Positions 2,002 to 43,463 of a DNA stretch of 64,000 nucleotides are shown in pieces. Each line of letters begins with the position of its first letter. Positions within the stretch are counted from its first letter, which is position 1. This stretch comes from Archangium sp. (GTDB lineage: Bacteria; Myxococcota; Myxococcia; Myxococcales; Myxococcaceae). Location: positions 6,976,259-7,040,258 of the forward strand of contig JASGKS010000001.1 in the NCBI GenBank assembly GCA_047600485.1, in the 5' to 3' direction. Under the pieces are notes generated by a model. It searched no databases, was not told the origin of the DNA, and saw only the letters and a program-made list of their open reading frames with translations. The position numbers and the translations under genes were made by a program.

Positions 2002-4746
2002 TCACTGGAGCAGGCTGAGCAGGAACTCCGTCGGCGTGCTGCGCAGCACTTCGACCGAGCACGACAGCTCCATGCCCAGATGCGAGAGCGAGCCCTTGCT
2101 CAACTGGAAGCGGCCTTCGCGCAGCTGAATCGCAGTGAGCTCGCGACCTGAAGTGACGTTGGTGACGAGACTCCAGCGCGCGGGCAGCTCGGGGTGCGTG
2201 GGGTCCTGCAGCGCGAGATGATCGAACGTCATCACCTGGCCCGTCGCCAGCCCCATGCCGGGGACATCGGCCTTCATGGTGATGCTCACCTGCGCGGTGA
2301 ACGGCAACGCCGAGTAGCCGACGTCAGGCGTCGCAAGCGGGTTGGTGAGCGCCTCCAGCACCACCGCGGTGAAGCTCGCCGACTCGCACGTGCGGCGCTC
2401 GACGCGACGCGAGCGATTCAAGATGTCGCGCGGGAACGGCATCGCCGCGAGCTCCGCCGACAACCCGCGAATGCCCGGCTCGAGCGAGCGCGTCTGCTTC
2501 AACACCACGCGCGCGGGAAACGGCGTTCCCATGCTGAGCGCCGGCCAGCCCTCGGGCACCTGACGGAACTCGAAGTCCAACACCTGTGTCGCTGACTGCT
2601 GCGCGACGGGCTTGCCGGTGTTCTCGCGCTCGAGCCACAGCGTGGTGACCGCCTTCGCGTGGCCGAACGTCTCGAGCAGCTCGGCGTCGGTGAGCAACAC
2701 GGTGCCCATCGGCACCAGCGTCGACGGCCGAATGCGCTCGATGACCGGAGTCGACGTTCCCGCTGCGAGCGTGACGCGATCGATTTCCGGCAGCGCGGTG
2801 GTGGTCGGGTTGGTGACGCTGACCGCTCCGGCTTGCACGTTGAGCTCCATCACCACCGTGCCGTTCTTCACGGTGCAGAGGAACACGCCGTTGCTCTTCT
2901 CCTTGTCGTCGTCGAAGCGTGCGTGCACCACCACCGCCATGTTTCCCGAGAGGTGGTCGATGTTCTCGAGCGCACGCTCTTCGAAGGCCTCGGCGGTCCA
3001 GTACGAGGCCCAGGTCTTCTTGATGGCCCACTCGATGGTCTGCTTCTGGTCGCCGCTGTTGGGCTGCAGCTGCGCGTCGAGGAAGCCGGTGTTCGAGTCG
3101 TAGAGGCCCGCGCCGTTGAAGCCCTCGATGTCTTCCGCGGTCGACGACGAGCGGAAGCGCAGGCCCTGCAGGTACGAGTAGTGGCCGAACTGCGCACGGA
3201 GCGCCGCGGTGAGGGTCGCGAGCGTGGTGGCGTTCATCGGCGTCTTGCGAATGAGCTGCTTCACGCCGCCGTCACGCACCAGGTCGCCGAGCGTGTCGCC
3301 GGGCGGGTGCGCGGCTGTGAATTCCTGCAGGAAGGTCTGATCAGCCGGAGTGGTGTGCGTCTCGTTGAATGACGTCTCGCCCTCGAGAACGAGGTAGCGC
3401 ACGCGTTGATCTTCGTTGAACCCCGGAGCGACCAGCATCGCCTCGAGCCGCGGCCGGAACTGCGCGAGGTGCTCGACGTACGGCCGAATGCTGATGGCGC
3501 CCACCGCGTCAGGCGTGGCGTTGGGAGCGCCCGCGAGCAACCCGAGATAGCCGGTCGCCTTGCCGCCGATGCCGGGCCGCAGCGTGTCGGAGTCGTCAGC
3601 CGAGAGCGTGCGCAGGTCGACGGTGTACGGGAGCGTGGCGATGTCGACCTGCGTGACCGCGGCCGCCGGCTTGCGCTGGCTCTGCAGCCACACCGAGTAC
3701 TGCGCTTCGCTGATGGGCTTGATGATCAACTGCCCGGGGCCGGTGGACTTCACGACCACCGGAGAGCGGAAGCGCGCGAGGTCGAGCAGCTCCTGATCAT
3801 CGATGACGCCCGCGCGATACGCGTTGGGAATGCCGCGGTTCTTCGCGAGCAGATTGAAGTGCGCCAGCGGCGTCTGCGGCACCGCGGTCACCACGCCCGC
3901 GCACTGCGGGAGGAAGTCGGGCACGTCTTCGAGCAGCAAGATGTCGGTCGAGGTCGTGTCGTCCGTCGACTCGCCACTTCGCTTCACGCGCAGCCGGCCC
4001 GCGGTGATGCCGTCGTTGTAGACCTCGAGCTCGCCCGGCGCGGTGAGGTCCTTCAGGCGGATGATGCGGTCGAAGTACTGCAGCTGCTTCGACTCGATGT
4101 CCTGCGCGATGACTTCCTGCTGCGGCGAGCGCACCACCCACACCACCTGCGAACCGATGCCCGCGGGCAACGTCTTCTCGAGCTCGGCGAAGAAGCGCAC
4201 CAGCTCGGCGTGTGACGGCGAGTCGGAGAACTCGAGCTGAAACGCCCAGCGCTCCGGCCGGTCTCCGCTCGCGATGACGTGAATCAACGTGCCGAGGCCG
4301 AACGCGCGCGGAGGAACGAAGAGGCCCAGGTCGTAGAAGCGCGGCGAGTAGAGGCGATCTCCGTCGACCCAGCGGAGGTCGAGCGGCAACACGGTCTCCT
4401 TCTTCGCCCACGCGTAGATGTCGGCGATGGTCGCGAACTCGTGGCCGGTGACGGGAACGATGCCCTCGCGTCCCGGGATGCGCTGGCCGTTGAGCAACCG
4501 GAACCAGTACCACTCGTCGTGCAGCGCGTAGAACGAGTTGTCGAGGTAGCGCACCGCCTCTTTGTCGCTGCCGAAGCCGGTGATGATGAACTTGCCCGAA
4601 GTGCGACCGTGCTCGGTGATGGCGAGCGCTTCGAAGTCGCTCACCGCTTTGATTTCGGTCTTCGCGTGGTCTTCGAAACCGTCGGTTCCCGGGCCCGGGC
4701 AAGCAGAGGTCACGGCCAGAACGAGGGCGAAAGCCAGTCGACGCAT
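2002..4746 (-). CDS. Exported lipoprotein with PEP/pyruvate-binding (PPDK_N-like) domain
   Basis: Signal peptide/lipobox MRRLAFALVLAVTSAC. Motifs RPGIGGKATGYLGLLAG and FRSSSTAEDIEGFNGAGLYDS resemble the GGKAANL / SSATAEDLP motifs of PEP-utilizing enzyme N-terminal domains. Start chosen at the internal Met preceding the signal peptide (the ORF track extends to 4806). Confidence 0.5.
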   Translation of the reverse strand: MRRLAFALVLAVTSACPGPGTDGFEDHAKTEIKAVSDFEALAITEHGRTSGKFIITGFGSDKEAVRYLDNSFYALHDEWYWFRLLNGQRIPGREGIVPVTGHEFATIADIYAWAKKETVLPLDLRWVDGDRLYSPRFYDLGLFVPPRAFGLGTLIHVIASGDRPERWAFQLEFSDSPSHAELVRFFAELEKTLPAGIGSQVVWVVRSPQQEVIAQDIESKQLQYFDRIIRLKDLTAPGELEVYNDGITAGRLRVKRSGESTDDTTSTDILLLEDVPDFLPQCAGVVTAVPQTPLAHFNLLAKNRGIPNAYRAGVIDDQELLDLARFRSPVVVKSTGPGQLIIKPISEAQYSVWLQSQRKPAAAVTQVDIATLPYTVDLRTLSADDSDTLRPGIGGKATGYLGLLAGAPNATPDAVGAISIRPYVEHLAQFRPRLEAMLVAPGFNEDQRVRYLVLEGETSFNETHTTPADQTFLQEFTAAHPPGDTLGDLVRDGGVKQLIRKTPMNATTLATLTAALRAQFGHYSYLQGLRFRSSSTAEDIEGFNGAGLYDSNTGFLDAQLQPNSGDQKQTIEWAIKKTWASYWTAEAFEERALENIDHLSGNMAVVVHARFDDDKEKSNGVFLCTVKNGTVVMELNVQAGAVSVTNPTTTALPEIDRVTLAAGTSTPVIERIRPSTLVPMGTVLLTDAELLETFGHAKAVTTLWLERENTGKPVAQQSATQVLDFEFRQVPEGWPALSMGTPFPARVVLKQTRSLEPGIRGLSAELAAMPFPRDILNRSRRVERRTCESASFTAVVLEALTNPLATPDVGYSALPFTAQVSITMKADVPGMGLATGQVMTFDHLALQDPTHPELPARWSLVTNVTSGRELTAIQLREGRFQLSKGSLSHLGMELSCSVEVLRSTPTEFLLSLLQ

Positions 4747-30619: not shown

Positions 30620-31570
30620 TCAGCGCGTTCCGACCACCAGTTCCGCGATGGCGCGACTGATGCGGTGCCCGAGCTTCTGCTCGACGTCGAGGTAGATGGG
30701 CGAGCTGTTCAGCTCGAGGAACACGAAGCGCCCGTCAGTCGTGCGCTTGATGTCGATGCCCGCGAAGCGCAGTCCGCATTTCCTTGCGGCGTCTCGACAG
30801 TGTTGGACCACCGCGCTCGGCAGCTCGACTTCTTCGTAGCGCGCGTCACCCGACGAGTAGACGGGGTCGTCGCGAAAATCGAGGTGCTGCGACGGAGTGC
30901 GAATCGCGACGCACGAGACGATTTCGTCTCCCGCGAGCATCACGCGGAGATCGTCACCGTCGATGCGCTCTTGAAAGATGACCGGCGAATTGCGGACCGC
31001 GTCGAGCTCGTCGGCGCTCTCGAGGTCGGCGAGGCGACGGGTGATGGCTCCGCCCATGAGCGGCTTGAAGATGACGTCGTGCGTGTCCTTCGCGAATGCG
31101 CGCACCGCGTCGGGGTCGTTGCTGATCAACGTGCGGGGCACGCTCGCGCCGACGCTGCGCAGCACGTTGAGCTGAAACGGTTTGTACTGGAGCACGCTCC
31201 CGGCTTGCGGCGGGTTGATCAGCCGCGCGCCTCGGTCCTGCAACGCGAGGAGCCACGCGACGAAGTACGACGCGCGCTCGCGTTCCTGCATGTAGCGGAT
31301 GAACCAGTCTTCGTAGAGCACGAGCTCCTGGTCTTCTTCGCGTTCGAACGACGGCGCGTACGGAGCGGGGATGCTGCGCAGGTAGAAGCCGCGCACGTCG
31401 GTGAGGTCGACGCCGCGGTAGAGGAATTTGCCGTCGAGCTCGCTGAGCGGAAGACCTTCGTCGAGCGCGTCGCTGCGGATCAGCACGTCGTCTGCGCCGA
31501 GCGCGCGCACTTCCTTCGCCACGGCGTGGACCTGGAGATCATCGTCAGTGCCAAAGATGCCGACCCGCAT
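30620..31570 (-). CDS. ATP-grasp family peptide ligase (RimK-like; candidate graspetide macrocyclase)
   Basis: RimK/glutathione-synthetase-like ATP-grasp architecture (~320 aa); specific catalytic motifs were not confirmed from memory. Start taken at MRVGIFG. Divergent from the repeat-peptide gene. Confidence 0.75.
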   Translation of the reverse strand: MRVGIFGTDDDLQVHAVAKEVRALGADDVLIRSDALDEGLPLSELDGKFLYRGVDLTDVRGFYLRSIPAPYAPSFEREEDQELVLYEDWFIRYMQERERASYFVAWLLALQDRGARLINPPQAGSVLQYKPFQLNVLRSVGASVPRTLISNDPDAVRAFAKDTHDVIFKPLMGGAITRRLADLESADELDAVRNSPVIFQERIDGDDLRVMLAGDEIVSCVAIRTPSQHLDFRDDPVYSSGDARYEEVELPSAVVQHCRDAARKCGLRFAGIDIKRTTDGRFVFLELNSSPIYLDVEQKLGHRISRAIAELVVGTR

Positions 31571-31640
31571 GACGTGTTCGCGGGGCAAATGTACTCTGCG
31601 CGCGCGTCATTTCTCTCGTCGTCATCAAGGAGCGCTCCAC

Positions 31641-32273: not shown

Positions 32274-33992
32274 TCAGAGCTTCAGCTTCTTCGTCGTCGT
32301 CTTGCCCGCGCTGATCTCGACTTCGATCGCGCGCTTGATGCCCTTGGCGTCGTTCACCAGCGTGAGCACGTGAATGCCCGGCGGCAACGTCACCTCGACC
32401 AGCGGCGTGTCGCCCAACTTGCGCCCCTTGAGAAACACCTCGGTGTATGGCGTCGTATCGAGCGTCAGCTTCCCCTTCGCGATCTTCACCGGAGTCTTCA
32501 CCGGCTGATCAGTCTTCGGCGGCTCGACGGGCTTCGGCGTCTCGGCAGCGAGCCCCGCATCGACCGCAGCAGTCGGCACAGGCGGCGGTTCCTTCACCGG
32601 CTCCTTCACGACCACCGGCGGAGGCACCACCTTCGCGATGACCGGTTCCTTCTTCGGCTCCTCGGACGACGGCAGATGCGTGACGAGGTACGCGACACCG
32701 ACCAGCAACACGATGCCGACACCCACCGCGATGGCCGCGCGCGCTTTTCTCTCGCGCTGCATGCGCGCGAGCGTCGGCTCTCCGACCTGCGTGGGAATTC
32801 CTTCGACCACGGGAATCGAACTTCCACTCGCGGTGACTTCCGGCGCGCCGAGCGGTGACGGCGCAGGAGCGAGCTCGGCCGCCGGCAACGTCGGGTGGCT
32901 GCGAATCGGCGAGAGGTGCTGCGGCAAGTGCTTCAACTGCGACGGCGTCTTCGCCGACGGCTCGAGCGAAATCTGCGCGATGCGCAATTTGCCCATGCGC
33001 CGGTCAGCGTCGAACAGCCCGTTCATGAACTCCGCGACCGCGCGCTCGCTGCGCACGTACTGCTGACTCACGAGAAACGACGCGAGCGCATCGGCGAGCT
33101 CAGCGGCGCTCTGGTAGCGCTGCTCCAAATCGCGCTCCATCGCCTTCAAGATGATGGCGTCGAGCGCCGGCGGCACCTGCGGCCGAATGCTGCTCGGCAC
33201 GGGAATCGGAGCGCTCACCACCGCCTTCAACGTCGCGAGGTCGCTCTCGCGCTTGAACGGCCGCTGCAGCGTCACCAACTCGTAGAGCACCGTGCCGAGC
33301 GCGAACACGTCGCTGCGGCGATCGAGCGGATCTCCCGCGGCCTGCTCGGGAGACACGTACGCGACCTTGCCCTTCAACGTGCCGGCCGCGGTCTTCGTGA
33401 TGTTCGACTCCGCGCGCGCGATGCCGAAGTCCACCAGCTTCACGGTGCCGTGGTACGTGACGATGACGTTCGACGGGCTCACGTCACGGTGCACGACGTT
33501 TTGGGGCCGGCCGTTCTGATCAGTCAGCTCGTGCGCGAAGTGCAGACCGGTCGCCGCTCCGACGATGACGTCGCACGCGGTGGCGATGGGCACCATGCGC
33601 TCGGCGCGCTTGCTCGCCTGCATGATGCTCGCGAGGTCCTCACCGGGGAGGTGCTCCATCGCGAGGTAGTACTGCCCGCCGACTTCGCCGAAGTCGTAGA
33701 TGCGCACCACGTTGTTGTGGTCGAGCGTCGCCGCGAGCCGCGCCTCGTCGAGGAACATCTGGACGAACTCGTCGTTGCTGCACAGCTCGGGGAGAATCAC
33801 CTTCAGCACGGCGGTCTTCTCGAAGCCGTGCGGCCCGCGCTGCACCGCGAGCCAGATCTGCGCCATGCCGCCCACCGCGATGCGGCGAATCAGCCGGTAC
33901 TTTCCGAACTCGATGGGCTGAAGCCCGTCGGCGCCAGGGGTCTGATCCACGCGGTCGGTGCGCAGCTTACTCCGCCACACAGAGCAGACCAC
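32274..33992 (-). CDS. Serine/threonine protein kinase with C-terminal PEGA domain
   Basis: GGMAQIWLA...VLK, HRDVSPSNVIV, DFGIARA, TM helix. C-terminal KLTLDTTPYTEVFLKGRKLGDTPLVEVTLPPGIHVLTLVND is PEGA-like. Paralog of 15740..17434. Confidence 0.9.
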   Translation of the reverse strand: MVCSVWRSKLRTDRVDQTPGADGLQPIEFGKYRLIRRIAVGGMAQIWLAVQRGPHGFEKTAVLKVILPELCSNDEFVQMFLDEARLAATLDHNNVVRIYDFGEVGGQYYLAMEHLPGEDLASIMQASKRAERMVPIATACDVIVGAATGLHFAHELTDQNGRPQNVVHRDVSPSNVIVTYHGTVKLVDFGIARAESNITKTAAGTLKGKVAYVSPEQAAGDPLDRRSDVFALGTVLYELVTLQRPFKRESDLATLKAVVSAPIPVPSSIRPQVPPALDAIILKAMERDLEQRYQSAAELADALASFLVSQQYVRSERAVAEFMNGLFDADRRMGKLRIAQISLEPSAKTPSQLKHLPQHLSPIRSHPTLPAAELAPAPSPLGAPEVTASGSSIPVVEGIPTQVGEPTLARMQRERKARAAIAVGVGIVLLVGVAYLVTHLPSSEEPKKEPVIAKVVPPPVVVKEPVKEPPPVPTAAVDAGLAAETPKPVEPPKTDQPVKTPVKIAKGKLTLDTTPYTEVFLKGRKLGDTPLVEVTLPPGIHVLTLVNDAKGIKRAIEVEISAGKTTTKKLKL

Positions 33993-34032: not shown

Positions 34033-35070
34033 ATGTCCCTCTTCGTCTGCGTAGTCGCCGCGACGTTGGCGGTGGCTCCTCCGGAGCTGAAGAACGCCGA
34101 AGGGTTGATGGCGAAATACAAATACGCCGAGGCGCAGGCGCAGCTGAAGAAGGCGCGCGCGGCGAAGGGTCTCGATCGCGCGAGCTTGCTGCGCATTCTC
34201 GAGCTGCAGGGCATCGCGGCGGGACAACAGCGACAAGCCGGGCCCGCGACGCAGGCGTTCAGCGAGCTGCTCACGCTCGACCCGGGTCACAAGCTCGCCG
34301 AGGAATTCGCGCCGCGCGTGATGACTCCGTTCTTCGAGGCCGGTCAGGCGGTCAACGAAGCGGGCGCGCTCGAGCTCAAAGCCGCGGCGGTCTCGGCGAG
34401 CAACGGTCGACTCACCGCGCTCAACGTCGAGGTGCCGAAGGACGCGCTGAAGCTCGTGCGCTCGTTGGTGTTCCACATCTCCATCAACGCGCCGTGGTCG
34501 ACGCGCACCGTTCCACTCGAGGGCGGCAAGGCGAGCACGCCGGTCGACGCGACCGAGGTGCAGTGGTGGGCGGAGCTGCTCGGAGAAAACGACGCGCAGT
34601 TGGTCGTGCTCGGGTCCGAGAGCAATCCACTGGTGGCGACGCCGCCGGCACCGATGGTGAGCGCGACTGCGCCGCCTCCGCTTCCGCCGTCAGCCGAACC
34701 GGTGGTGACGAAGAGCGCGAGCAGTGGTGGAGCGGTGCGCACGGCGTCGTTCTTCGTGATGGGTGGCGCGGTGGTGGCCGCGGGAGTCGGCGCGTTCTTC
34801 GGAGTGCGCTCGTCGACGGCGCTCGGTTCCATCACCGGAGCGACGCGAGATGATCAGGGCCGCATCACTTCGCTCACCGAACGCGAAGCCGCCGCGCGCG
34901 GTGCGCAGGCCGCGAGTGATGGGCTCATCGCGAACATCTTGTTCGTCAGCGCGGGAGTGGTGGCCGCGGCCGGCATCGTGATGTTCATCGTCGGCGGGCC
35001 GGAGACGCCCGCACGCGTGACGCTCGCTCCTGCGCTCGGTGGCTTCGCGCTGAGCGGGAGCTTTCCGTGA
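34033..35070 (+). CDS. Membrane-anchored periplasmic protein (paralog of 17437..18459)
   Basis: Signal peptide. RILELQGIAAGQ and QWWAELLGEN motifs shared with 17437..18459. C-terminal TM helix. Confidence 0.55.
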   Translation: MSLFVCVVAATLAVAPPELKNAEGLMAKYKYAEAQAQLKKARAAKGLDRASLLRILELQGIAAGQQRQAGPATQAFSELLTLDPGHKLAEEFAPRVMTPFFEAGQAVNEAGALELKAAAVSASNGRLTALNVEVPKDALKLVRSLVFHISINAPWSTRTVPLEGGKASTPVDATEVQWWAELLGENDAQLVVLGSESNPLVATPPAPMVSATAPPPLPPSAEPVVTKSASSGGAVRTASFFVMGGAVVAAGVGAFFGVRSSTALGSITGATRDDQGRITSLTEREAAARGAQAASDGLIANILFVSAGVVAAAGIVMFIVGGPETPARVTLAPALGGFALSGSFP

Positions 35071-37556
35071 GTGTGGTCGAAGGCAAAGCCCCCCTCTCCC
35101 GCCAGGGAGAGGGTCGGGGTGAGGGTGAACCGCACCACAATCTCAGCGCGCGATTCGTCGGAGGGGCGCGCAACACGTCGTGGCGCTCGCCGCTGCTCCT
35201 CGCGGCGTTCGTCTTCGCCGGCTGTCAGTGCACTCCGCCAGATCTCTCGCAGCAACGCTTCGCGTGCACGACGCTCGCCGATTGCGCCGATGGCCACGAC
35301 TGCATCGACGGCGAGTGTCGCAGTCCCTCGAGCAATGGAGACGGCGGAGCGACCGGAGGCGGCACAGCGACCGGAGGCGGCGCAGCGACCGGCGGCGGCG
35401 CAGCAACTGGTGGCGGCGCAGCGACGGGTGGTGGCGCAACGACTGGCGGCGGCGCTGCAACCGGAGGCGGCGGCGGCGCGACTGGCGGCGGATCCACAAC
35501 CGGTGGTGGCGGTGGTGCCACTGGTGGTGGCTCAACGACCGGAGGCGGCGGCTCGACCGGTGGCGGAGGCGGCACCTGCACTCCCGAAAGCGACCCCGAC
35601 TTCTGCACGCGACTCGCAAAGAACTGCGGCAGCGTGACGGCGAACGACAACTGCTCCGTCTCGCGCACCGCGACCTGCGGCACGTGCAACGGCGGAAACT
35701 TCTGCGGCGGCGGCGGCGCAGCGAACGTCTGCGGCCCCTGTCAGCCCGAGAACGACGTCGGCTTCTGCGGCCGCCTCGCGAAGAACTGCGGCCAGCTCAC
35801 CGCCAACGACAACTGCAACGTCCCGCGCACCGCGATGTGCGGCAGCTGTACTTCACCGCTCACCTGCGGCGGCAGCGTGACGCCGAACGTGTGCGGTGGC
35901 GGCCCCATCTGCACCGCCGACTGGTGTTGGAGCCGCCCGCAGATTCAAGGCAACCATCTGCACGACACCGCCGTCGTCTCAGCGACCGACGTGTGGGCCG
36001 TCGGAGACATCGGCACGATTCTCCACTGGGACGGCACGGCCTGGGGCAAGGCGCCGAACACCTTCGGCGATGATCTCTTCGCGGTCTGGGCCAACGGCAC
36101 GAGCAACGCGTGGGCGGCCGGGCGTGACGGCACCATCCTCCACTGGAATGGAAACGACTGGTCTCCGCTCGGAAACCTCGCCACCAACCAGACCATCTTC
36201 GGCCTGTGGGGCAGCTCGACGAACGACGTGTGGGCCGCGGGCACTGGCGGCGTGCTCCGCCGGTGGAACGGCTCGACGTGGGTCGCGGCGACGAGCAACA
36301 CCGCCAACACCTTCTACGGCCTCGGTGGCTCAGCGACGAACGACGTGTGGGCCGTCGGCGAAGGCGGAATGATTCAGCACTTCAACGGCACCGCGTGGAG
36401 CAACGTCACGAGCCCCACCACCAACGAGCTCGACGGCGTGTGGGCGAGCAGCACGACCAACGCGTGGGCCGTCGGTGACAACGTCATCCTGCGGTGGAAC
36501 GGCACGATGTGGACCGACGTGACGCCGACCACGTCGACTGGGTTCTTCGGCGTGTGGGGCACCGGACCCAACGACGTGTGGGCCGTCGGCGATCGCCTCA
36601 CGATGCGCTTCAACGGCACGTCGTGGAACGCAGTGGGCACTCCGGTCGCGAGTGAGTGGCACGGCGTGCACGGCGCGGGCAGCGAAGTGTTCGCGGTCGG
36701 AATCGGCGGAGCGACGATGCGGTGGACCGGAATGGCGTGGACCGAGCTCACCGCGGGTCCGTTCGAGACGCTCTACGGCCTGTTCGCGTTCTCGACGACC
36801 GACGTTTGGGCTTCAGGCTCGCGCGGAACGATTCTGCACTTCGACGGCACGACGTGGACACGCTCCAACTCCGGTACGACGAACGACCTCAACGCGCTGT
36901 GGGGCTCGGCGCCGAACAACATCTGGGTCGCGGGCGACAACGTGATGAAGCGGTGGAACGGAACGTCGTGGACCACCCAACCCGCTCCGCCGCGGCAGAT
37001 CTACGACCTGCACGGACTCTCGGCGAACGACATCTGGGCGTCGGGCGTCGACGGTTTGATGATGCACTACAACGGCACGAGCTGGTCGGTGGTGAACACC
37101 GGCATGTCGACCACCAACGACTACAACACCGTGTGGGCCCTCGCCGCGAACGACGTCTGGGCGCTCGGTGACAACGGGCTCGCGGGCCACTGGGACGGCA
37201 TGAACTGGAGCGTGGTGGCGCCGTTCATCACCACCAATTCCGTCTACGCGATGTCGGGCAACGCGGGCACGCTCATCGGCGTCGGCCCGGGCGCGACCAT
37301 CGTGAAATTCTCGGGAGGCACGTGGACCGACGTGTCCGTCGGCGGCAGCGATTACTACGGCGTCACGATGGTCACTCCGAGTGAGAGCTACATCGTCGGT
37401 GGCGGCGTCTCGATGCGCTACGACACCGTCTCTCCGCAGCAATACCTCGACCTGCCGAACTACTACGGGTTCTACAACATCGCCGCCATTGCACAGCCCA
37501 GCGGCCCCGTGCTCTTCACCGTCGGCACCGCAGGCGGGGTCCTGCAACACAACTGA
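35067..37556 (+). CDS. Lipoprotein with (ATGGG)n Gly-rich linker, duplicated Cys-rich module and beta-propeller-like W-x-G repeats
   Basis: Lipobox FVFAGCQ. GGATGGGTATGGGAATGGG... repeats. Two copies of C...DFCTRLAKNCG..TANDNC.V.RTA.CG.C. At least 15 repeats of type GTILHWDGTAW / VWAVG / LRWNGTMW. The true start is uncertain because the repeat element lies in the 5' region. Confidence 0.6.
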   Translation: MSVVEGKAPLSRQGEGRGEGEPHHNLSARFVGGARNTSWRSPLLLAAFVFAGCQCTPPDLSQQRFACTTLADCADGHDCIDGECRSPSSNGDGGATGGGTATGGGAATGGGAATGGGAATGGGATTGGGAATGGGGGATGGGSTTGGGGGATGGGSTTGGGGSTGGGGGTCTPESDPDFCTRLAKNCGSVTANDNCSVSRTATCGTCNGGNFCGGGGAANVCGPCQPENDVGFCGRLAKNCGQLTANDNCNVPRTAMCGSCTSPLTCGGSVTPNVCGGGPICTADWCWSRPQIQGNHLHDTAVVSATDVWAVGDIGTILHWDGTAWGKAPNTFGDDLFAVWANGTSNAWAAGRDGTILHWNGNDWSPLGNLATNQTIFGLWGSSTNDVWAAGTGGVLRRWNGSTWVAATSNTANTFYGLGGSATNDVWAVGEGGMIQHFNGTAWSNVTSPTTNELDGVWASSTTNAWAVGDNVILRWNGTMWTDVTPTTSTGFFGVWGTGPNDVWAVGDRLTMRFNGTSWNAVGTPVASEWHGVHGAGSEVFAVGIGGATMRWTGMAWTELTAGPFETLYGLFAFSTTDVWASGSRGTILHFDGTTWTRSNSGTTNDLNALWGSAPNNIWVAGDNVMKRWNGTSWTTQPAPPRQIYDLHGLSANDIWASGVDGLMMHYNGTSWSVVNTGMSTTNDYNTVWALAANDVWALGDNGLAGHWDGMNWSVVAPFITTNSVYAMSGNAGTLIGVGPGATIVKFSGGTWTDVSVGGSDYYGVTMVTPSESYIVGGGVSMRYDTVSPQQYLDLPNYYGFYNIAAIAQPSGPVLFTVGTAGGVLQHN
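35086..35123. repeat. Dispersed palindromic repeat, copy 2 (inverted orientation)
   Basis: cccctctcccgccagggagagggtcggggtgagggtg is the reverse complement of the 32192 element, with one substitution in the loop. Confidence 0.8.
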
Positions 37557-37619: not shown

Positions 37620-38687
37620 ATGGCATCCGCTCCCGTCATCGCTTCCGTCGCTCGCGCGCTCCCGCCGCACTACCACTCGCAGGCAGAGCTCTCGCAGGGC
37701 CTTCAGGACTACTGGCGCGAAGGCGGCCACCACTTCAACAAGAGCCGCGTCGATTCGTTGCACGCCTCGGTGCAGGTGCGCGGGCGGCACCTCGCGATTC
37801 CGATGGCCGACTACCCGCCGCTCAACACCTTCGAGAAGCGAAACCAGGTGTGGATTCGCGAGGCGGTGAAGCTCGGTGAACAGGCCGTGCGCGACGCGGT
37901 GAAGAAGGCCGGGCTCTCGCTGCAAGACATCGACGCGTTGTGCTTCACGAGCATCACCGGTCTCGCGACGCCGAGCATCGACGCGCGATTGGTGAACAAG
38001 CTCGGGCTGCGCAACGACGTGAAGCGGCTTCCGATTTTCGGACTCGGCTGCGTCGCGGGAGTGGCTGGCACCGCGCGCGTGAGCGACATGCTGCGCGGTT
38101 TTCCCGGGCACAACGCGGTGCTGCTCTCGGTCGAACTGTGCAGCCTCACCGTGCAGCGCGATGACCTCTCGCTCTCGAACATCATCGCGTCGGGGCTGTT
38201 CGGCGACGGCGCTTCGGCAGTCGTGGTGCGCGGAGGCGACGCTCCCGGCGATGGACCGCGCGTGCTCGCGAGCGAATCGGTCTTCTACCCAGACACCGAA
38301 GACGTGATGGGTTGGGACTTTCTCGATTCGGGTTTCAAGGTCGTGCTCTCGGCGCGCGTGCCGGAGATGGTGCTCACCAACGTGCGCAACAACGTCGACG
38401 GTTTCTTGAGCAAGCACGGCGTGAAGCGCAGCGACATCAAGCACTGGGTCGCGCACACCGGCGGGCCGAAGGTGCTCGAGGCGTTCGAGCAGGCACTCGA
38501 GCTTCCACCCGACGCGCTCGCGCGAAGCTGGGAGTCGCTGCGCTCGGTCGGAAATCTCTCGTCGTCGTCGGTGCTCTACGTGCTCGGTGACCTGCTCGAC
38601 TCGGGCGTCGCGAAGAAGGGCGACGTCGGCCTGATGATGGCGATGGGCCCGGGCTTCTGCTCGGAGCTGGTGCTGCTGAAATGGTGA
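37620..38687 (+). CDS. Type III polyketide synthase (chalcone/stilbene synthase family)
   Basis: Catalytic Cys in FGLGCVAGVAG, His in WVAHTGGPKVL, Asn in VGNLSSSSVLYVL. Length 355 aa. Confidence 0.9.
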   Translation: MASAPVIASVARALPPHYHSQAELSQGLQDYWREGGHHFNKSRVDSLHASVQVRGRHLAIPMADYPPLNTFEKRNQVWIREAVKLGEQAVRDAVKKAGLSLQDIDALCFTSITGLATPSIDARLVNKLGLRNDVKRLPIFGLGCVAGVAGTARVSDMLRGFPGHNAVLLSVELCSLTVQRDDLSLSNIIASGLFGDGASAVVVRGGDAPGDGPRVLASESVFYPDTEDVMGWDFLDSGFKVVLSARVPEMVLTNVRNNVDGFLSKHGVKRSDIKHWVAHTGGPKVLEAFEQALELPPDALARSWESLRSVGNLSSSSVLYVLGDLLDSGVAKKGDVGLMMAMGPGFCSELVLLKW

Positions 38688-39208
38688 ACTCGCTCTGGCT
38701 CTACACGGCGCTCATCGCGCTGGTGGGCGTGGAGCGGCTCGTCGAACTTCGACTCTCGGTGCGCAACGCGAAGTGGGCGTTCGAGCGCGGCGCGAAAGAG
38801 TACGGTCAGGGCCACTACCCGTTCATGACCGTGTTCCACACCGCGTTCCTCGTGGCGTGCGTGGCGGAGCCGTGGCTCTTCGACCGGCCCTTCGTTTCGC
38901 CGTGGGGCTTCCTCGCGCTCGCGTTCGCCGTCGGCGCGCAGCTGTTGCGGTACTGGGCCATCACCACGCTCGGCACGCGGTGGAACACGCGCGTCATCGT
39001 GCTGCCGAAGGGAGAGCAGTTGGTGAGCGGCGGGCCGTACCAATTCGTGCGGCACCCGAACTACGTCGCGGTGTGCGTCGAGCTGCTGGCGTTGCCGCTC
39101 ATTCACGGAGCGTTCGTGACCGCGGTGGTCTTCACGATTGGAAATGCGCTGCTCTTGCGCGTGCGCATCAAGGTCGAGGAGACGGCGCTCGGTCTGCGCG
39201 CGGAGTAG
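38681..39208 (+). CDS. Isoprenylcysteine carboxyl methyltransferase (ICMT)-family membrane methyltransferase
   Basis: Multi-TM protein with C-terminal GGPYQFVRHPNYVAVCVELLALPL motif typical of the ICMT/PEMT family. Overlaps the PKS stop by 7 nt. Confidence 0.8.
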   Translation: MVNSLWLYTALIALVGVERLVELRLSVRNAKWAFERGAKEYGQGHYPFMTVFHTAFLVACVAEPWLFDRPFVSPWGFLALAFAVGAQLLRYWAITTLGTRWNTRVIVLPKGEQLVSGGPYQFVRHPNYVAVCVELLALPLIHGAFVTAVVFTIGNALLLRVRIKVEETALGLRAE

Positions 39209-39210
39209 GA

Positions 39211-39671
39211 CGTGGCGCATGGCGATTCTCTTCCGTGCGGCGGTGCGAGCTGACCTTCCTGCGATGTTGGCGCTGCTGGCTGACGACACGCTGGGCACCA
39301 AGCGCGAGGTGAGCAGCGAGGACCCGCGCTACCTCGCCGCGTGGGAAGCGGTGACCACCGACGCGAATCAACACCTGCTCGTCGCCGAGCTCGACGGCGC
39401 GGTGGTGGGCATGATGCAGATGACGCGCACGCCCGGCCTCTCTCGCGCAGGAGCGTGGCGCGCGACGCTCGAATCGGTGCGCATTCGCAGCGACCTCCGC
39501 GGGCGTGGGTACGGCGGGCAGTTCATCGAGTACGCGATTGAGTTGGCGCGCACCCTCGGGTGCCGGTTGGTGCAGCTCACCAGCGACGTGCGACGCGAAG
39601 AAGCGCATCGGTTCTACGGGCGACTCGGCTTCGTCGCGTCGCACACCGGCTTCAAGCTCGAGCTCAAGTGA
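39211..39671 (+). CDS. GNAT family N-acetyltransferase
   Basis: RIRSDLRGRGYGGQFIEYAIELAR acetyl-CoA binding motif (R/Q-x-x-G-x-G/A). Start taken at MAILFRAAV (39211) rather than the ORF-track 39138. Confidence 0.75.
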
Positions 39672-40762
39672 GAGTCGACGTCGCCATCGTCGGAGCGGGT
39701 CCCGCCGGCCTCGCCACGGCCATCGGCGCTGCGACGCGCGGGCTGACGGTGCACGTGTTCGACAAGCAGGGCTTTCCCATCGACAAGGCGTGCGGTGAAG
39801 GGCTGATGCCGTCGGGCTTGTCGGCGCTCGAGCGGCTCGGCGCGCTGAAGTTTCTCGACCGTGCTGATTCGGCGGAGTTCCACTCCATTACCTATGTGCA
39901 GGAGAGCGGCGTGCGCGCGGTGGGCACGTTGCCCGCTCCCGGTGGGCTCGGCGTGCGTCGCCTCGCGCTGTCCGCAGCGTTGCGCGCGCGCGCGGTCGAA
40001 GCCGGAGTCGTGCTGCACGAGAAGACCGGCGTGCGCACACATCGCCACGTCATCGACGGCGTCGAGCTCGAGACGGAGAGTGAAGTCGTGCACGCGCAGG
40101 TGCTCATCGCGGCCGACGGGTTGAACTCGCTGTGCCGGCAACGCGAAGGGCTCGCTGGGCCGGTGGCGAAACATCGGCGGTTCGGTGTGCGGCGGCATCT
40201 GCGCGTGAAGCCGTGGGCCGCGACGGTCGAGGTGCATTTCGCGGAAGGCGTCGAGGCGTACGTCACTCCCGCGGGCGTCGAGCGCGTGGGCGTCGCGTTT
40301 CTGTGGGACGCGTCGAGCGCGGTGAGTGAAGAGAGCGGCTTCGATGCGCTGCTCGCGCGTTTCCCCGAGCTCGCTGAGCGCGTGCGCGGAGCTGACTTCG
40401 ATTCGTCGTCGCGCGGCGCGGGCCCGTTGATGCAGCACGTGCAGCGGCGCGTCGCACCGCGGTTCGCGCTGGTGGGAGATGCCGCCGGCTACGTCGATGC
40501 CATCACCGGTGAAGGGCTGACGCAGGCGTTCGACGCGTCGGAAGCGCTGGTCAGTGTGTTGCCCGAAGTCATCGCGGCGCGCGGAGCGGTGGAAGCGTTC
40601 GGTGCGTACGAGCGCGCGGCCGAGAAGTCTTTCGTCAGGTACGCGCGGCTCGCGAACTCGCTGCTGTGGCTCGCGCGACGTCCCCAGTTGCGGAAGTTCG
40701 TCGTCGCGTCGCTGGCGAAGAGCCCTGCCCTGTTCGAGCGAGTCCTCGCGTCGGCGCTGTAG
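39668..40762 (+). CDS. FAD-dependent oxidoreductase/monooxygenase (geranylgeranyl-reductase-like family)
   Basis: GTGA overlap with the GNAT stop. N-terminal dinucleotide-binding motif VDVAIVGAGPAGLATA...VHVFDK. GD motif LVGDAAGYVDAITGEG. Confidence 0.8.
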   Translation: MRVDVAIVGAGPAGLATAIGAATRGLTVHVFDKQGFPIDKACGEGLMPSGLSALERLGALKFLDRADSAEFHSITYVQESGVRAVGTLPAPGGLGVRRLALSAALRARAVEAGVVLHEKTGVRTHRHVIDGVELETESEVVHAQVLIAADGLNSLCRQREGLAGPVAKHRRFGVRRHLRVKPWAATVEVHFAEGVEAYVTPAGVERVGVAFLWDASSAVSEESGFDALLARFPELAERVRGADFDSSSRGAGPLMQHVQRRVAPRFALVGDAAGYVDAITGEGLTQAFDASEALVSVLPEVIAARGAVEAFGAYERAAEKSFVRYARLANSLLWLARRPQLRKFVVASLAKSPALFERVLASAL

Positions 40763-40865: not shown

Positions 40866-42392
40866 ATGAGCATTCGTGTGGCTTCTCCGTTGGTGCCGAC
40901 GCTGCCTCCTCCCACGCCGTTGCCGGTTCCGACCGCGGGACAGGTGAAGCGCGCTGAGACGCAGTTGAAGAAGCTCGGATACAGCCCGGGCGCAGTCGAC
41001 GGTCGCCCCACCGCGGCGTTCTCGTCGGCGCTCAAGGAATTCCAGGCGGCGTGGGGTTTGTCTGCGACCGGCACGCTCGACGACGCGACGCGCTCGAAGC
41101 TCGACCACACCGCGGAGCGGCAGCACGACGCGAAGGGCAAGTCGGTCTCGGTCGGCGAGAAGTCGAAGAGCATTCTGAAGATGGAGCAGCTGCTGGCGCG
41201 GCTCGGTTACCGCGTCGGAAAGCGCGACGGTGTCTACTCGCGCGAGACCGCGGAGGCGGTGAAGGCGTTCCGCGCTGATCAGAAGGAACTGAAGGACGGC
41301 TTCGGCTCGATGAGCACCGGCGCGCAGAAGGTGCTGCAGCGCGAGGCGAGCTCGCTGTCGCATGCTCCGGAGCGTCGCCGCGTGAAGGCCACCGCCGCGC
41401 AGACGCAGCTCGATCGCGCCACGCTGAACGCGACGCGCGCGGGCATCAAGGAAGGTGACCACTCGCGCGTCGTCGCCAACGTGCAGCAGCACTTGCGCGC
41501 GGCGGGCTTCGACCCCAAGCGCGTGACCGGCACGTTCGATGAGCGCACCGCGGGCGCGCTCAAGGCGTTCCAGCGTCGCAGCAAGCTCGAGCCGACCGGC
41601 GTGGTCGACGCGAAGACCTGGCGCGCGCTGCGCAACGCGCGGATGGAAGCGACCTCGGGCACCAGCCCCGCGCAGCGGCTCAACGAGCGCAGCGGCGCGG
41701 TGAAGGCGAGCGAGAAGCTGCTCAAGAAGCTCGGCTTCAACCCCGGGAAGATCGACGGGCTGTTCGACAAGCGCACCGAGAAGGCCGTGCGTGCGTTCGA
41801 GCGCCGCGAGCACCTCAAGGTCGACGGAGCCATCACCACCGGCGAGCTGTCGAAGATGAAGAAGCTGTCGAAGGGCGTCACGCTCGGACAGCTGCACGCC
41901 ATCATGCCGTCGCTGCCGATGTCGAAGGCGCGGGCGTATTTGCCGCTGCTCAACCGCGCGATGGCCGAGGCGCACATCAACACCAAGTCGCGCAAGGCGA
42001 TGTTCCTCGCGCAGCTCGCGCACGAGAGCGTGCAGCTGCGGTTCTTCGAGGAGATTGCGTCGGGCGCGGCGTACGAGGGCCGGCGAGATCTGGGCAACAC
42101 GCACCCGGGTGATGGCGTTCGGTACAAGGGGCGCGGGCCGATTCAGCTGACTGGTCGCGCGAACTACCGCGCGGCGGGGAAGGCGCTGCACCTGCCGCTC
42201 GAGGCGCAGCCGAAGATGGCGGCGCGCCCGTCGGTCGGGTTCCGCACGGCGGCGTGGTTCTGGACGAGCCACGGACTCAACGCGCTTGCGGACCGTGGTG
42301 ACTTCATCGGCGTCACGCGGCGCATCAACGGCGGTACCAACGGGCTGTCGTCGCGGCAGGCGTACTACCGCAAGGCGCTGCGGGTTCTCTGA
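40866..42392 (+). CDS. Putative peptidoglycan hydrolase: 5 PG-binding (PG_binding_1) repeats + C-terminal GH19 chitinase/lysozyme-like domain
   Basis: Repeats of LKKLGYSPGAVDG....T..A(L/V)KAFQ. C-terminal ...AQLAHES..L...EE.....YEGRRDLGNT.PGDG.RYKGRGPIQLTGRANY, the GH19 signature. Start at ATG 40866; the ORF-track 40554 start adds an Arg/Ser-rich non-coding-like extension. Confidence 0.75.
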   Translation: MSIRVASPLVPTLPPPTPLPVPTAGQVKRAETQLKKLGYSPGAVDGRPTAAFSSALKEFQAAWGLSATGTLDDATRSKLDHTAERQHDAKGKSVSVGEKSKSILKMEQLLARLGYRVGKRDGVYSRETAEAVKAFRADQKELKDGFGSMSTGAQKVLQREASSLSHAPERRRVKATAAQTQLDRATLNATRAGIKEGDHSRVVANVQQHLRAAGFDPKRVTGTFDERTAGALKAFQRRSKLEPTGVVDAKTWRALRNARMEATSGTSPAQRLNERSGAVKASEKLLKKLGFNPGKIDGLFDKRTEKAVRAFERREHLKVDGAITTGELSKMKKLSKGVTLGQLHAIMPSLPMSKARAYLPLLNRAMAEAHINTKSRKAMFLAQLAHESVQLRFFEEIASGAAYEGRRDLGNTHPGDGVRYKGRGPIQLTGRANYRAAGKALHLPLEAQPKMAARPSVGFRTAAWFWTSHGLNALADRGDFIGVTRRINGGTNGLSSRQAYYRKALRVL

Positions 42393-42512: not shown

Positions 42513-43463
42513 TCACTCCAGGAATGCGTCGAGCCGCGCGATGCGATCTCCGTCGAGCGTCAGCACGTGGAGCGCTGCCTTCACGCCATCGCGGAACATC
42601 GTCAGCGCCGGCTGACCGTTCGCCGTCGTGAGCTCGACGCGGAACGAGCCCGCGCTGCCAGGCACCAGCACCATGCCGGCCAGCGACGCTCCGATGTTCG
42701 CCGCGCCGCGGAACCACACCGGCATCGGCGGCATGGTGAGCACCGCGTCTTCTTTCAGCAACTGCACGAGCAGCCCGACGTCGCTGCGTTCCCACGCGGT
42801 GATGTAGCGAGCCAGCAGCGAACGCGTCGTCTCGTCATCAGCCGCCGGAGCACGCACCGCGCGATTCTCTTCGAGCGTCGCCCTCGCCCGCTGCAGCGCC
42901 GAGTTCACCGCCGCGACCGACAGCTCGAGCAGCTCGGCGCACTCGCTCGCCTGCCACCCGAGCACGTCGCGCAACAACAACACCGCGCGCTGTCTCGGCG
43001 GCAACCGCTGCAACGCCGTCAGGAACGCCAGCGACACGCTCTGCCGCCGCGAGTAGCGCGCTTCGGGTGACGCTTCTTCGGGCTCAATCCACTCGTCGGG
43101 GCACGGCTGCAGCCACGGCACCTCGACGTCGGGCGCCATCGACGACAGCACGGCCGCGCTCGGCTCACCCGGCCCGCTCAAGTCACTCGGCAGCACGCGA
43201 TTCTTCTTCGCTTCGAGCGCGTTGAGGCACGCTGACGTCGCCACGCGATACAGCCAGCCGCGCAAGCTCGAACGACCCTCGAAACCACCGAGGCCCTTCC
43301 ACGCCTTCACCAGCGAGTCCTGCAGCAGGTCTTCGGCGTCGTGCGTCGAGCCGCTCATCCGATAGCAGTGCGCTCGCAGCTCCCGGCGAAACGGAGCGAC
43401 CAGTTGCTCGAACGCCTTCGCATTTCCCGCGCGCGCCGAGGCGAGAAGTTGTTCGGAACTCAT
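42513..43463 (-). CDS. ECF-type RNA polymerase sigma factor with C-terminal SnoaL-like extension (ECF41-like)
   Basis: Sigma-2 region DAEDLLQDSLVKAWKGLGGFEG. Sigma-4 region RQRAVLLLRDVLGWQASECAELLELSVAAVNSALQRAR. An extra roughly 110-aa C-terminal domain. Confidence 0.8.
   Translation of the reverse strand: MSSEQLLASARAGNAKAFEQLVAPFRRELRAHCYRMSGSTHDAEDLLQDSLVKAWKGLGGFEGRSSLRGWLYRVATSACLNALEAKKNRVLPSDLSGPGEPSAAVLSSMAPDVEVPWLQPCPDEWIEPEEASPEARYSRRQSVSLAFLTALQRLPPRQRAVLLLRDVLGWQASECAELLELSVAAVNSALQRARATLEENRAVRAPAADDETTRSLLARYITAWERSDVGLLVQLLKEDAVLTMPPMPVWFRGAANIGASLAGMVLVPGSAGSFRVELTTANGQPALTMFRDGVKAALHVLTLDGDRIARLDAFLE

Follow-up and report, generated by a model that had tools for sequence, protein, structure and literature searches.

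Does an operon built like the phenolic-lipid operons of Streptomyces and Mycobacterium serve the same kind of pathway in a myxobacterium, and what is an acetyltransferase gene doing in the middle of it? Both questions are raised by a 64-kb stretch of DNA (hereafter the window; ~67% G+C, from contig JASGKS010000001.1) whose host is an uncultured Archangium-like myxobacterium. Between positions 37620 and 40762 of the window, four closely packed, operon-like open reading frames (ORFs) encode, in this order, a type III polyketide synthase (PKS), a methyltransferase of the ICMT family, an acetyltransferase of the GNAT family and an oxidoreductase dependent on flavin adenine dinucleotide (FAD), to which we refer as the flavoenzyme. 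As we argue below, this is very probably a phenolic-lipid operon of the type of Streptomyces griseus srsABC and Mycobacterium smegmatis pkqABC, with the GNAT gene most likely a passenger. Because the core pathway has been characterised in Streptomyces, Mycobacterium and Myxococcus and is highly conserved in Myxococcota, the window copy adds little on its own; what stands out is a clade-specific accessory GNAT gene in an otherwise ordinary operon.

The core trio and its relatives

To which family of operons does the locus belong? We begin with the PKS, which matches Pfam Chal_sti_synt_N (1.4e-21) and Chal_sti_synt_C (6.7e-21) and whose nearest solved structure is Pks11 of M. tuberculosis (PDB 4JAO; 323 bits, E 1.9e-95, ~50% identity). 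The alignment with Pks11 is colinear and full length, from residue 6 to 355, and it pairs the catalytic residues C144/H279/N312 of the window PKS one by one with C138/H277/N310. Other solved type III PKSs score lower (CylI 189 bits, S. coelicolor THNS 183 bits, plant chalcone synthases ~105-120 bits), and ArsC (3VS8) is more distant than Pks11, CylI and RppA, since it is absent from the best 60 solved-structure matches. In the protein database there are 8000 homologues at E <= 1e-20; the nearest shares 90% identity with the window PKS, and a large number bear the annotation alkylresorcinol/alkylpyrone synthase. Note that the PKS falls below every NCBIfam equivalog cut-off; an assignment as DpgA (3,5-dihydroxyphenylacetyl-CoA synthase) was rejected because its score, 214 bits, lies under the cut-off of 425.

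A further residue speaks to the mode of ring closure. W232 of the window PKS aligns with the tryptophan W230 of Pks11/MMAR_2474. In the Pks11 orthologue, Trp230 is the counterpart of the tryptophan that ArsB needs to form resorcinols, and a tryptophan at that position is common to ArsB, FtpA, SrsA, PKS10 and PKS11 (PMC5916927). In ArsB, the substitution W281G changes the product from a resorcinol to a pyrone (PMC6274091), and the swaps ArsB W281G and ArsC G284W have both been described (PMC6274091, PMC7064976). By this tryptophan the window PKS looks like a resorcinol-forming enzyme. Its sequence places it with the Pks11 group and with the PKSs of trio operons in Streptomyces and Mycolicibacterium (50-55% identical), and it may well fall into one group with SrsA, FtpA and PkqA.

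The product of the second gene matches Pfam ICMT (1.9e-26) and PEMT (7.2e-10), resembles ICMT structures from eukaryotes and archaea only weakly, and has at least three hydrophobic stretches, one of them of two-helix length. The flavoenzyme matches FAD_binding_3 (3.6e-16) and carries an N-terminal GAGPAG (Rossmann) motif along with GDAAG; its best NCBIfam match is the geranylgeranyl-reductase family (4.7e-33), followed by UbiH-type hydroxylases, all of them under their cut-offs. These matches bear out a first-pass annotation, which had read the locus as a chalcone-synthase-family PKS with an intact Cys/His/Asn triad, an ICMT-family membrane methyltransferase and, as the fourth gene, an FAD-dependent monooxygenase-like enzyme. 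It had also described four co-directional, tightly packed genes, and we could confirm all four ORFs along with the outer coordinates. The junction figures were right in part: the 7-nt overlap between the PKS and ICMT genes (ATGGTGA) can be read from the sequence, whereas the 4-nt overlap and 2-nt gap given for the remaining two junctions are in fact a 10-nt gap between the ICMT and GNAT genes and a 4-nt overlap (GTGA) between the GNAT and FAD genes. The codon at 39674 is GTC and hence no start codon. The 7-nt overlap is kept in the relatives L001, L005, L006, L094 and L096, and the junctions are of the translational-coupling type. A different arrangement is seen in L008, the genome closest to that of the window (PKS 91% identical), where about six 45-bp units repeated in tandem (L008 9035-9400) lie between the PKS and methyltransferase genes and replace the 7-nt overlap.

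How widely is the arrangement shared? A scan of one genome per species gave 80 loci, which we searched with the four window proteins, and we built neighbour-joining trees of the PKS, methyltransferase, flavoenzyme and GNAT proteins (with bootstraps for the GNAT tree only). The order PKS-methyltransferase-flavoenzyme recurs in most of the 80 genomes, across Myxococcota, Gemmatimonadota and Actinomycetota. The PKS-methyltransferase pair is near-universal, the methyltransferase following the PKS directly in most loci, and full-length flavoenzyme homologues (37-81% identical) lie downstream of the pair in most. The flavoenzyme gene is directly next in close uncultured relatives (PKS 76-91% identical) and equally in Streptomyces, Nonomuraea, Nocardioides, Mycolicibacterium and other Actinomycetota (PKS 50-55% identical); the operons of Streptomyces, Nonomuraea and Mycolicibacterium are 55-58% identical to that of the window in the methyltransferase and 37-46% in the flavoenzyme. 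Elsewhere the two genes are set apart. Where the flavoenzyme is present in Gemmatimonadota and Acidobacteriota loci, it lies ~2 kb past the methyltransferase, and ~2.1 kb separate the two in most loci of cultured Archangium, Myxococcus, Corallococcus and Pyxidicoccus (PKS 60-64% identical, a range into which the Cystobacter PKS likewise falls). In L022, L025 and L036 the ~2.1-kb segment encodes an 83-93-residue PP-binding protein and a 585-591-residue AMP-binding enzyme, which are the acyl carrier protein (ACP) and fatty acyl-AMP ligase (FAAL) of the ftp type. No relative of either is found by tblastn in the window (best E 0.6), so that the absence of adjacent FAAL/ACP starter-loading genes, noted in the first-pass annotation, extends to all 64 kb. 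The srs/ftp-like phenolic-lipid operon proposed there is likewise supported, namely by the Pks11-group PKS, by W232 and by the order of the trio in Streptomyces, Nonomuraea, Mycolicibacterium and many Myxococcota.

Comparison with characterised systems narrows the assignment. With srsABC of S. griseus and pkqABC of M. smegmatis the window shares the same three families in the same order, likewise without a dedicated FAAL or ACP, and it has the PKS triad, a tryptophan at the ArsB W281 position, an ICMT gene directly downstream and an FAD enzyme in the operon. Unlike these two systems, it has a GNAT gene between methyltransferase and flavoenzyme, and its host is a myxobacterium; note also that the comparison with SrsA and PkqA draws on their published descriptions and on actinomycete trio PKSs that are 50-55% identical. 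The closest cultured relatives carry the M. xanthus ftpABCDE or myxobacterial 'alkylpyrone' cluster, with PKSs 60-64% identical and, in most, both the PKS-methyltransferase pair and a downstream flavoenzyme, but the window has a GNAT gene where the ftp type has its defining ACP and FAAL genes. M. tuberculosis Pks11 is in the same length class as the window PKS (353 versus 355 residues) and has the same triad and the same tryptophan, yet it lies outside any srs-type operon in M. tuberculosis (PMC5916927). The arsABCD system of Azotobacter vinelandii, whose ArsB is the source of the W281 rule, also uses type III PKSs to make long-chain alkylresorcinols and alkylpyrones; it has two such PKSs, which a type I fatty acid synthase feeds, and lacks an ICMT/flavoenzyme pair, whereas the window operon has a single PKS and is flanked by genes for a kinase, a lipoprotein-like repeat protein, a peptidoglycan-binding protein and a sigma factor. 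In bpsAB of Bacillus subtilis and cepAB of 'Entotheonella', finally, a type III PKS is tightly coupled to a methyltransferase and methylated phenolic lipids result (PMC7064976, PMC5916927), but both are two-gene systems without a flavoenzyme, and CepB comes from another methyltransferase family (PMC7064976). Judged by the sequence features compared here, the operon belongs to the srs/pkq type and is unlike the ars type.

Quinone or pyrone as the end product

What would such an operon make? By homology, a substrate, a product and a physiological role can be suggested. The PKS would be primed with a long-chain fatty acyl thioester (acyl-CoA or acyl-ACP), presumably drawn from primary metabolism because no dedicated FAAL or ACP is present, and would add three malonyl or methylmalonyl extender units. 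A W232-assisted aldol condensation may then give an alkylresorcinol or alkylresorcylic acid, with alkylpyrones as likely side products. The membrane-bound ICMT-like methyltransferase would O-methylate the ring and the FAD enzyme would hydroxylate it, yielding a methoxy-alkylhydroquinone that could oxidise to an alkylbenzoquinone (a 'polyketide quinone') in the membrane. Candidate roles for such a compound are that of a membrane or spore lipid or of an alternative electron carrier.

Precedents for these steps come from several hosts. Oxidation turns the products of S. griseus SrsA and M. xanthus FtpA into alkylquinones (PMC10896814). The trio operons of S. griseus, M. smegmatis and Streptomyces MNU77 make alkylbenzoquinones, a methyltransferase and a hydroxylase from one operon carrying the resorcinol on to a benzoquinone, and the polyketide quinones that pkqA-C of M. 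smegmatis and Streptomyces MNU77 give rise to are alternative electron carriers (PMC9927152). For SrsB, the title of a study cited in PMC5916927 names decarboxylative methylation of alkylresorcylic acid. The trio cluster also counts as one of the five biosynthetic clusters with the highest conservation in Myxococcota (PMC12766979).

We may, of course, have the wrong product in mind. Imagine that the operon really makes an O-methylated long-chain alkylpyrone and that the flavoenzyme acts on a target other than a resorcinol ring, such as the alkyl chain, which it might reduce or hydroxylate. We regard this scenario as rather unlikely, and yet it has a good deal to recommend it: the conserved myxobacterial type III PKS cluster has been assigned alkylpyrones through its similarity to MIBiG BGC0001831 (PMC12766979), in vivo work on that cluster in M. 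xanthus reported alkylpyrones, as cited in the same source (Hug et al. 2019), and O-methylated alkylpyrones are on record both for the myxobacterial cluster in vivo and for Bacillus BpsA/BpsB. Furthermore, the nearest solved relative, Pks11, bears the name of an alpha-pyrone synthesis PKS, the flavoenzyme finds its best NCBIfam match in the geranylgeranyl-reductase family, and resorcinol synthases commonly co-release pyrones (PMC7064976). Two observations argue for the quinone instead. First, W232 occupies the position where a tryptophan favours aldol cyclisation to resorcinols. Second, where the trio includes a flavin hydroxylase, in Streptomyces and Mycobacterium, quinones are what it gives (PMC10896814, PMC9927152).

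The acetyltransferase gene at the junction

We now turn to the gene that sets the window operon apart. Its product matches Pfam Acetyltransf_1 (1e-17), has an intact acetyl-CoA motif (RGRGYG) and finds its nearest solved structure in 1Z4E (E 2.7e-35), a protein with no assigned function. The database holds a protein 100% identical to it, from a MAG labelled Archangium sp. An identity as a PhnO-type aminoalkylphosphonate N-acetyltransferase was rejected because the score (55.7 bits) is under the NCBIfam equivalog cut-off of 142. A PADLOC scan of the GNAT and of two upstream unknown proteins gave no matches, and neither PMC10896814 nor PMC12766979 mentions an acetyltransferase in this pathway context.

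Is the gene a regular member of such operons? Between methyltransferase and flavoenzyme it is found only in the window, L008 (PKS 91% identical to that of the window), L005/L010 (86%), L094/L095, L096 and L090, and a profile built from 120 homologues found no member of the family near the PKS in the other loci among the 80. Together with L007/L009, the GNAT-bearing loci form one clade in the PKS, methyltransferase and flavoenzyme trees, and the first-pass view of the GNAT as standing outside the canonical trio is therefore sustained by its restriction to one small clade. Within that clade, L006, L007 and L009 are without the gene and have a 130-nt spacer in its place, while L090, the sister of L007/L009, has the GNAT gene followed by a reversed NmrA-NmrA-TetR block (L090 1473-3512) before the flavoenzyme. 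The simplest history is a single gain of the GNAT gene, then a single loss.

Does the spacer preserve a trace of that loss? In L007 it runs from 3917 to 4046 (the same in L006 and L009) and is non-coding; one frame, VCRPATVKDLPAL, resembles the N-terminus of the GNAT without reaching significance. Local alignment of the DNA gave no better scores for a deletion scar than shuffles did. Searched with the GNAT profile, the spacer yielded a best hit, out of 66 frames, on the right strand and at the right position (E = 0.15), which is suggestive but not significant.

Relatives of the gene also live elsewhere. Apart from the window's own record, the nearest GNAT (83% identical) stands free beside a TetR gene in MAG171, a MAG in which the operon itself (L014) is just the plain trio; this free-standing copy nests within the in-operon clade (97/100 bootstraps), and another, in L097 (69% identical), branches just outside it. 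Farther off, at 55-62% identity, homologues occur as stand-alone genes in Alphaproteobacteria and Actinomycetes (among them Inquilinus, Sphingopyxis and Micromonospora), one of these genes adjoining a methylmalonyl-CoA mutase gene. The idea of an ancestral TetR-GNAT cassette was discarded, the TetR genes beside the GNAT in L088 and L090 being related at family level only.

What occupies the junction in other loci is varied: ACP and FAAL genes, a GNAT gene, a gene for a secreted protein, the reversed NmrA-NmrA-TetR block or nothing at all. The secreted protein, encoded in L011 (4502-5539), has 345 residues, a signal peptide and no Pfam match. At the same time, the GNAT gene is not decaying. Its ratio of nonsynonymous to synonymous substitution rates (dN/dS), 0.26-0.36, indicates purifying selection and is close to those of the methyltransferase (0.24-0.32) and the flavoenzyme (0.19-0.34). 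Given its restriction to one clade, its absence from one member, its free-standing orthologues, the variable cargo of the junction and the lack of PKS linkage elsewhere in the 80 loci, we read the GNAT gene as most likely a functional, co-transcribed passenger, acquired at a permissive junction by the ancestor of a small clade, and not as a core step of the pathway. The change of cargo at the methyltransferase/flavoenzyme junction from lineage to lineage makes it easier to see how the myxobacterial version came by its starter-loading genes, and the GNAT clade provides a simple with/without test system for acetyltransferase modification of polyketide quinones.

Might the GNAT nonetheless be a true fourth enzyme? 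It could transfer an acetyl group to the hydroquinone, to the resorcinol or to an intermediate that bears an amine, or else acylate a protein partner, and so give rise to a clade-specific lipid. Retention of the gene at this junction in at least six diverged lineages (those of the window, L008, L005/L010, L090, L094/L095 and L096), purifying selection similar to that on the ICMT and FAD genes, an intact acetyl-CoA motif and a stop codon that overlaps the start of the FAD gene all fit this idea. We nevertheless consider it unlikely, as orthologues exist outside the operon (L088/L089, L097), L006/L007/L009 lack the gene within the same clade, and the family, widespread as a stand-alone gene of no assigned function, is without PKS linkage in other phyla according to the profile search of the 80 loci. 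GNATs typically N-acetylate amines, moreover, and to our knowledge the canonical pathway contains none. Should the gene have been recruited as a tailoring enzyme, which strikes us as quite improbable, the result would be an acetylated or acylated alkylresorcinol or hydroquinone undescribed from any srs, pkq or ftp system, and acetylation might then protect or export the redox-active lipid.

Keeping in mind that we favour an srsABC/pkqABC-type operon with a passenger GNAT, several points weigh on the other side. The maintenance of an intact GNAT in at least six lineages, under neighbour-like dN/dS and with start/stop coupling to the FAD gene, is also what one would expect of a tailoring enzyme. 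The argument from free-standing orthologues would lose force if MAG171 were a mixed bin, as it could be. Scans for consensus promoters and terminators between 37000 and 41200 found none and are uninformative in this high-GC organism, so that it is the spacing of the genes that argues for co-transcription. Lastly, the pathway may end in something other than a quinone, given that the homologous myxobacterial cluster is catalogued as alkylpyrone (PMC12766979). A mere chance adjacency of four functionally unlinked genes, or a set of artefactual ORFs such as high-GC DNA frequently throws up, has a blank promoter/terminator scan in its favour but is already refuted in practice by strong family matches for all four genes, a third-position G+C content of 0.80-0.85 in the called frames (the bias of real genes), same-order orthologues in dozens of genomes and dN/dS well under 1.

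Layout and flanking genes

Table 1. The four operon genes and the flanking genes discussed in the text (positions in the window).
Feature	Position	Strand	Remarks
ATP-grasp (RimK-like) protein	30620-31588	-	upstream
Ser/Thr protein kinase	32274-33992	-	upstream
Lipoprotein-like repeat protein	35067-37556	+	829 aa, 63-nt gap to PKS gene
Type III PKS	37620-38687	+	355 aa, ATG start
ICMT-family integral-membrane S-adenosylmethionine (SAM) methyltransferase, SrsB/PkqB/FtpB-like	38681-39208	+	175 aa, ATG start
GNAT N-acetyltransferase	39219-39671	+	150 aa, ATG start, AGGA 8 nt upstream
FAD-dependent oxidoreductase/hydroxylase, SrsC/PkqC/FtpE-like	39668-40762	+	364 aa, GTG start
Peptidoglycan-binding protein	40866-42392	+	four PG_binding_1 repeats, GH19 (chitinase/lysozyme-like) C-terminus
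Extracytoplasmic function (ECF) sigma factor	42513-43463	-	fused to SnoaL-like domain

The genes on either side of the operon (Table 1) differ in how far they are shared with relatives. The ORF directly upstream of the PKS has an N-terminus like that of a lipoprotein (LLLAAFVFAGC), a (TGGGAA)n stretch rich in Gly and Thr and two Cys-rich modules, after which come about 14 'WAVGD..G.I.HWNGT.W' repeats that suggest a beta-propeller; it has no Pfam or PADLOC match. Counterparts at the corresponding place are 61% identical in L003 and L094 and 46% identical in L005. The kinase gene farther upstream is also present in the syntenic locus L003. Just past the flavoenzyme, the peptidoglycan-binding gene looks like a local insertion, because it is missing in the syntenic locus L005, where a sigma-factor gene comes next. 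In the relatives L001 and L002 a different ECF sigma gene (L001 7336-8004) overlaps the PKS start by 4 nt, a hint that sigma factors may control the operon in part of the lineages.

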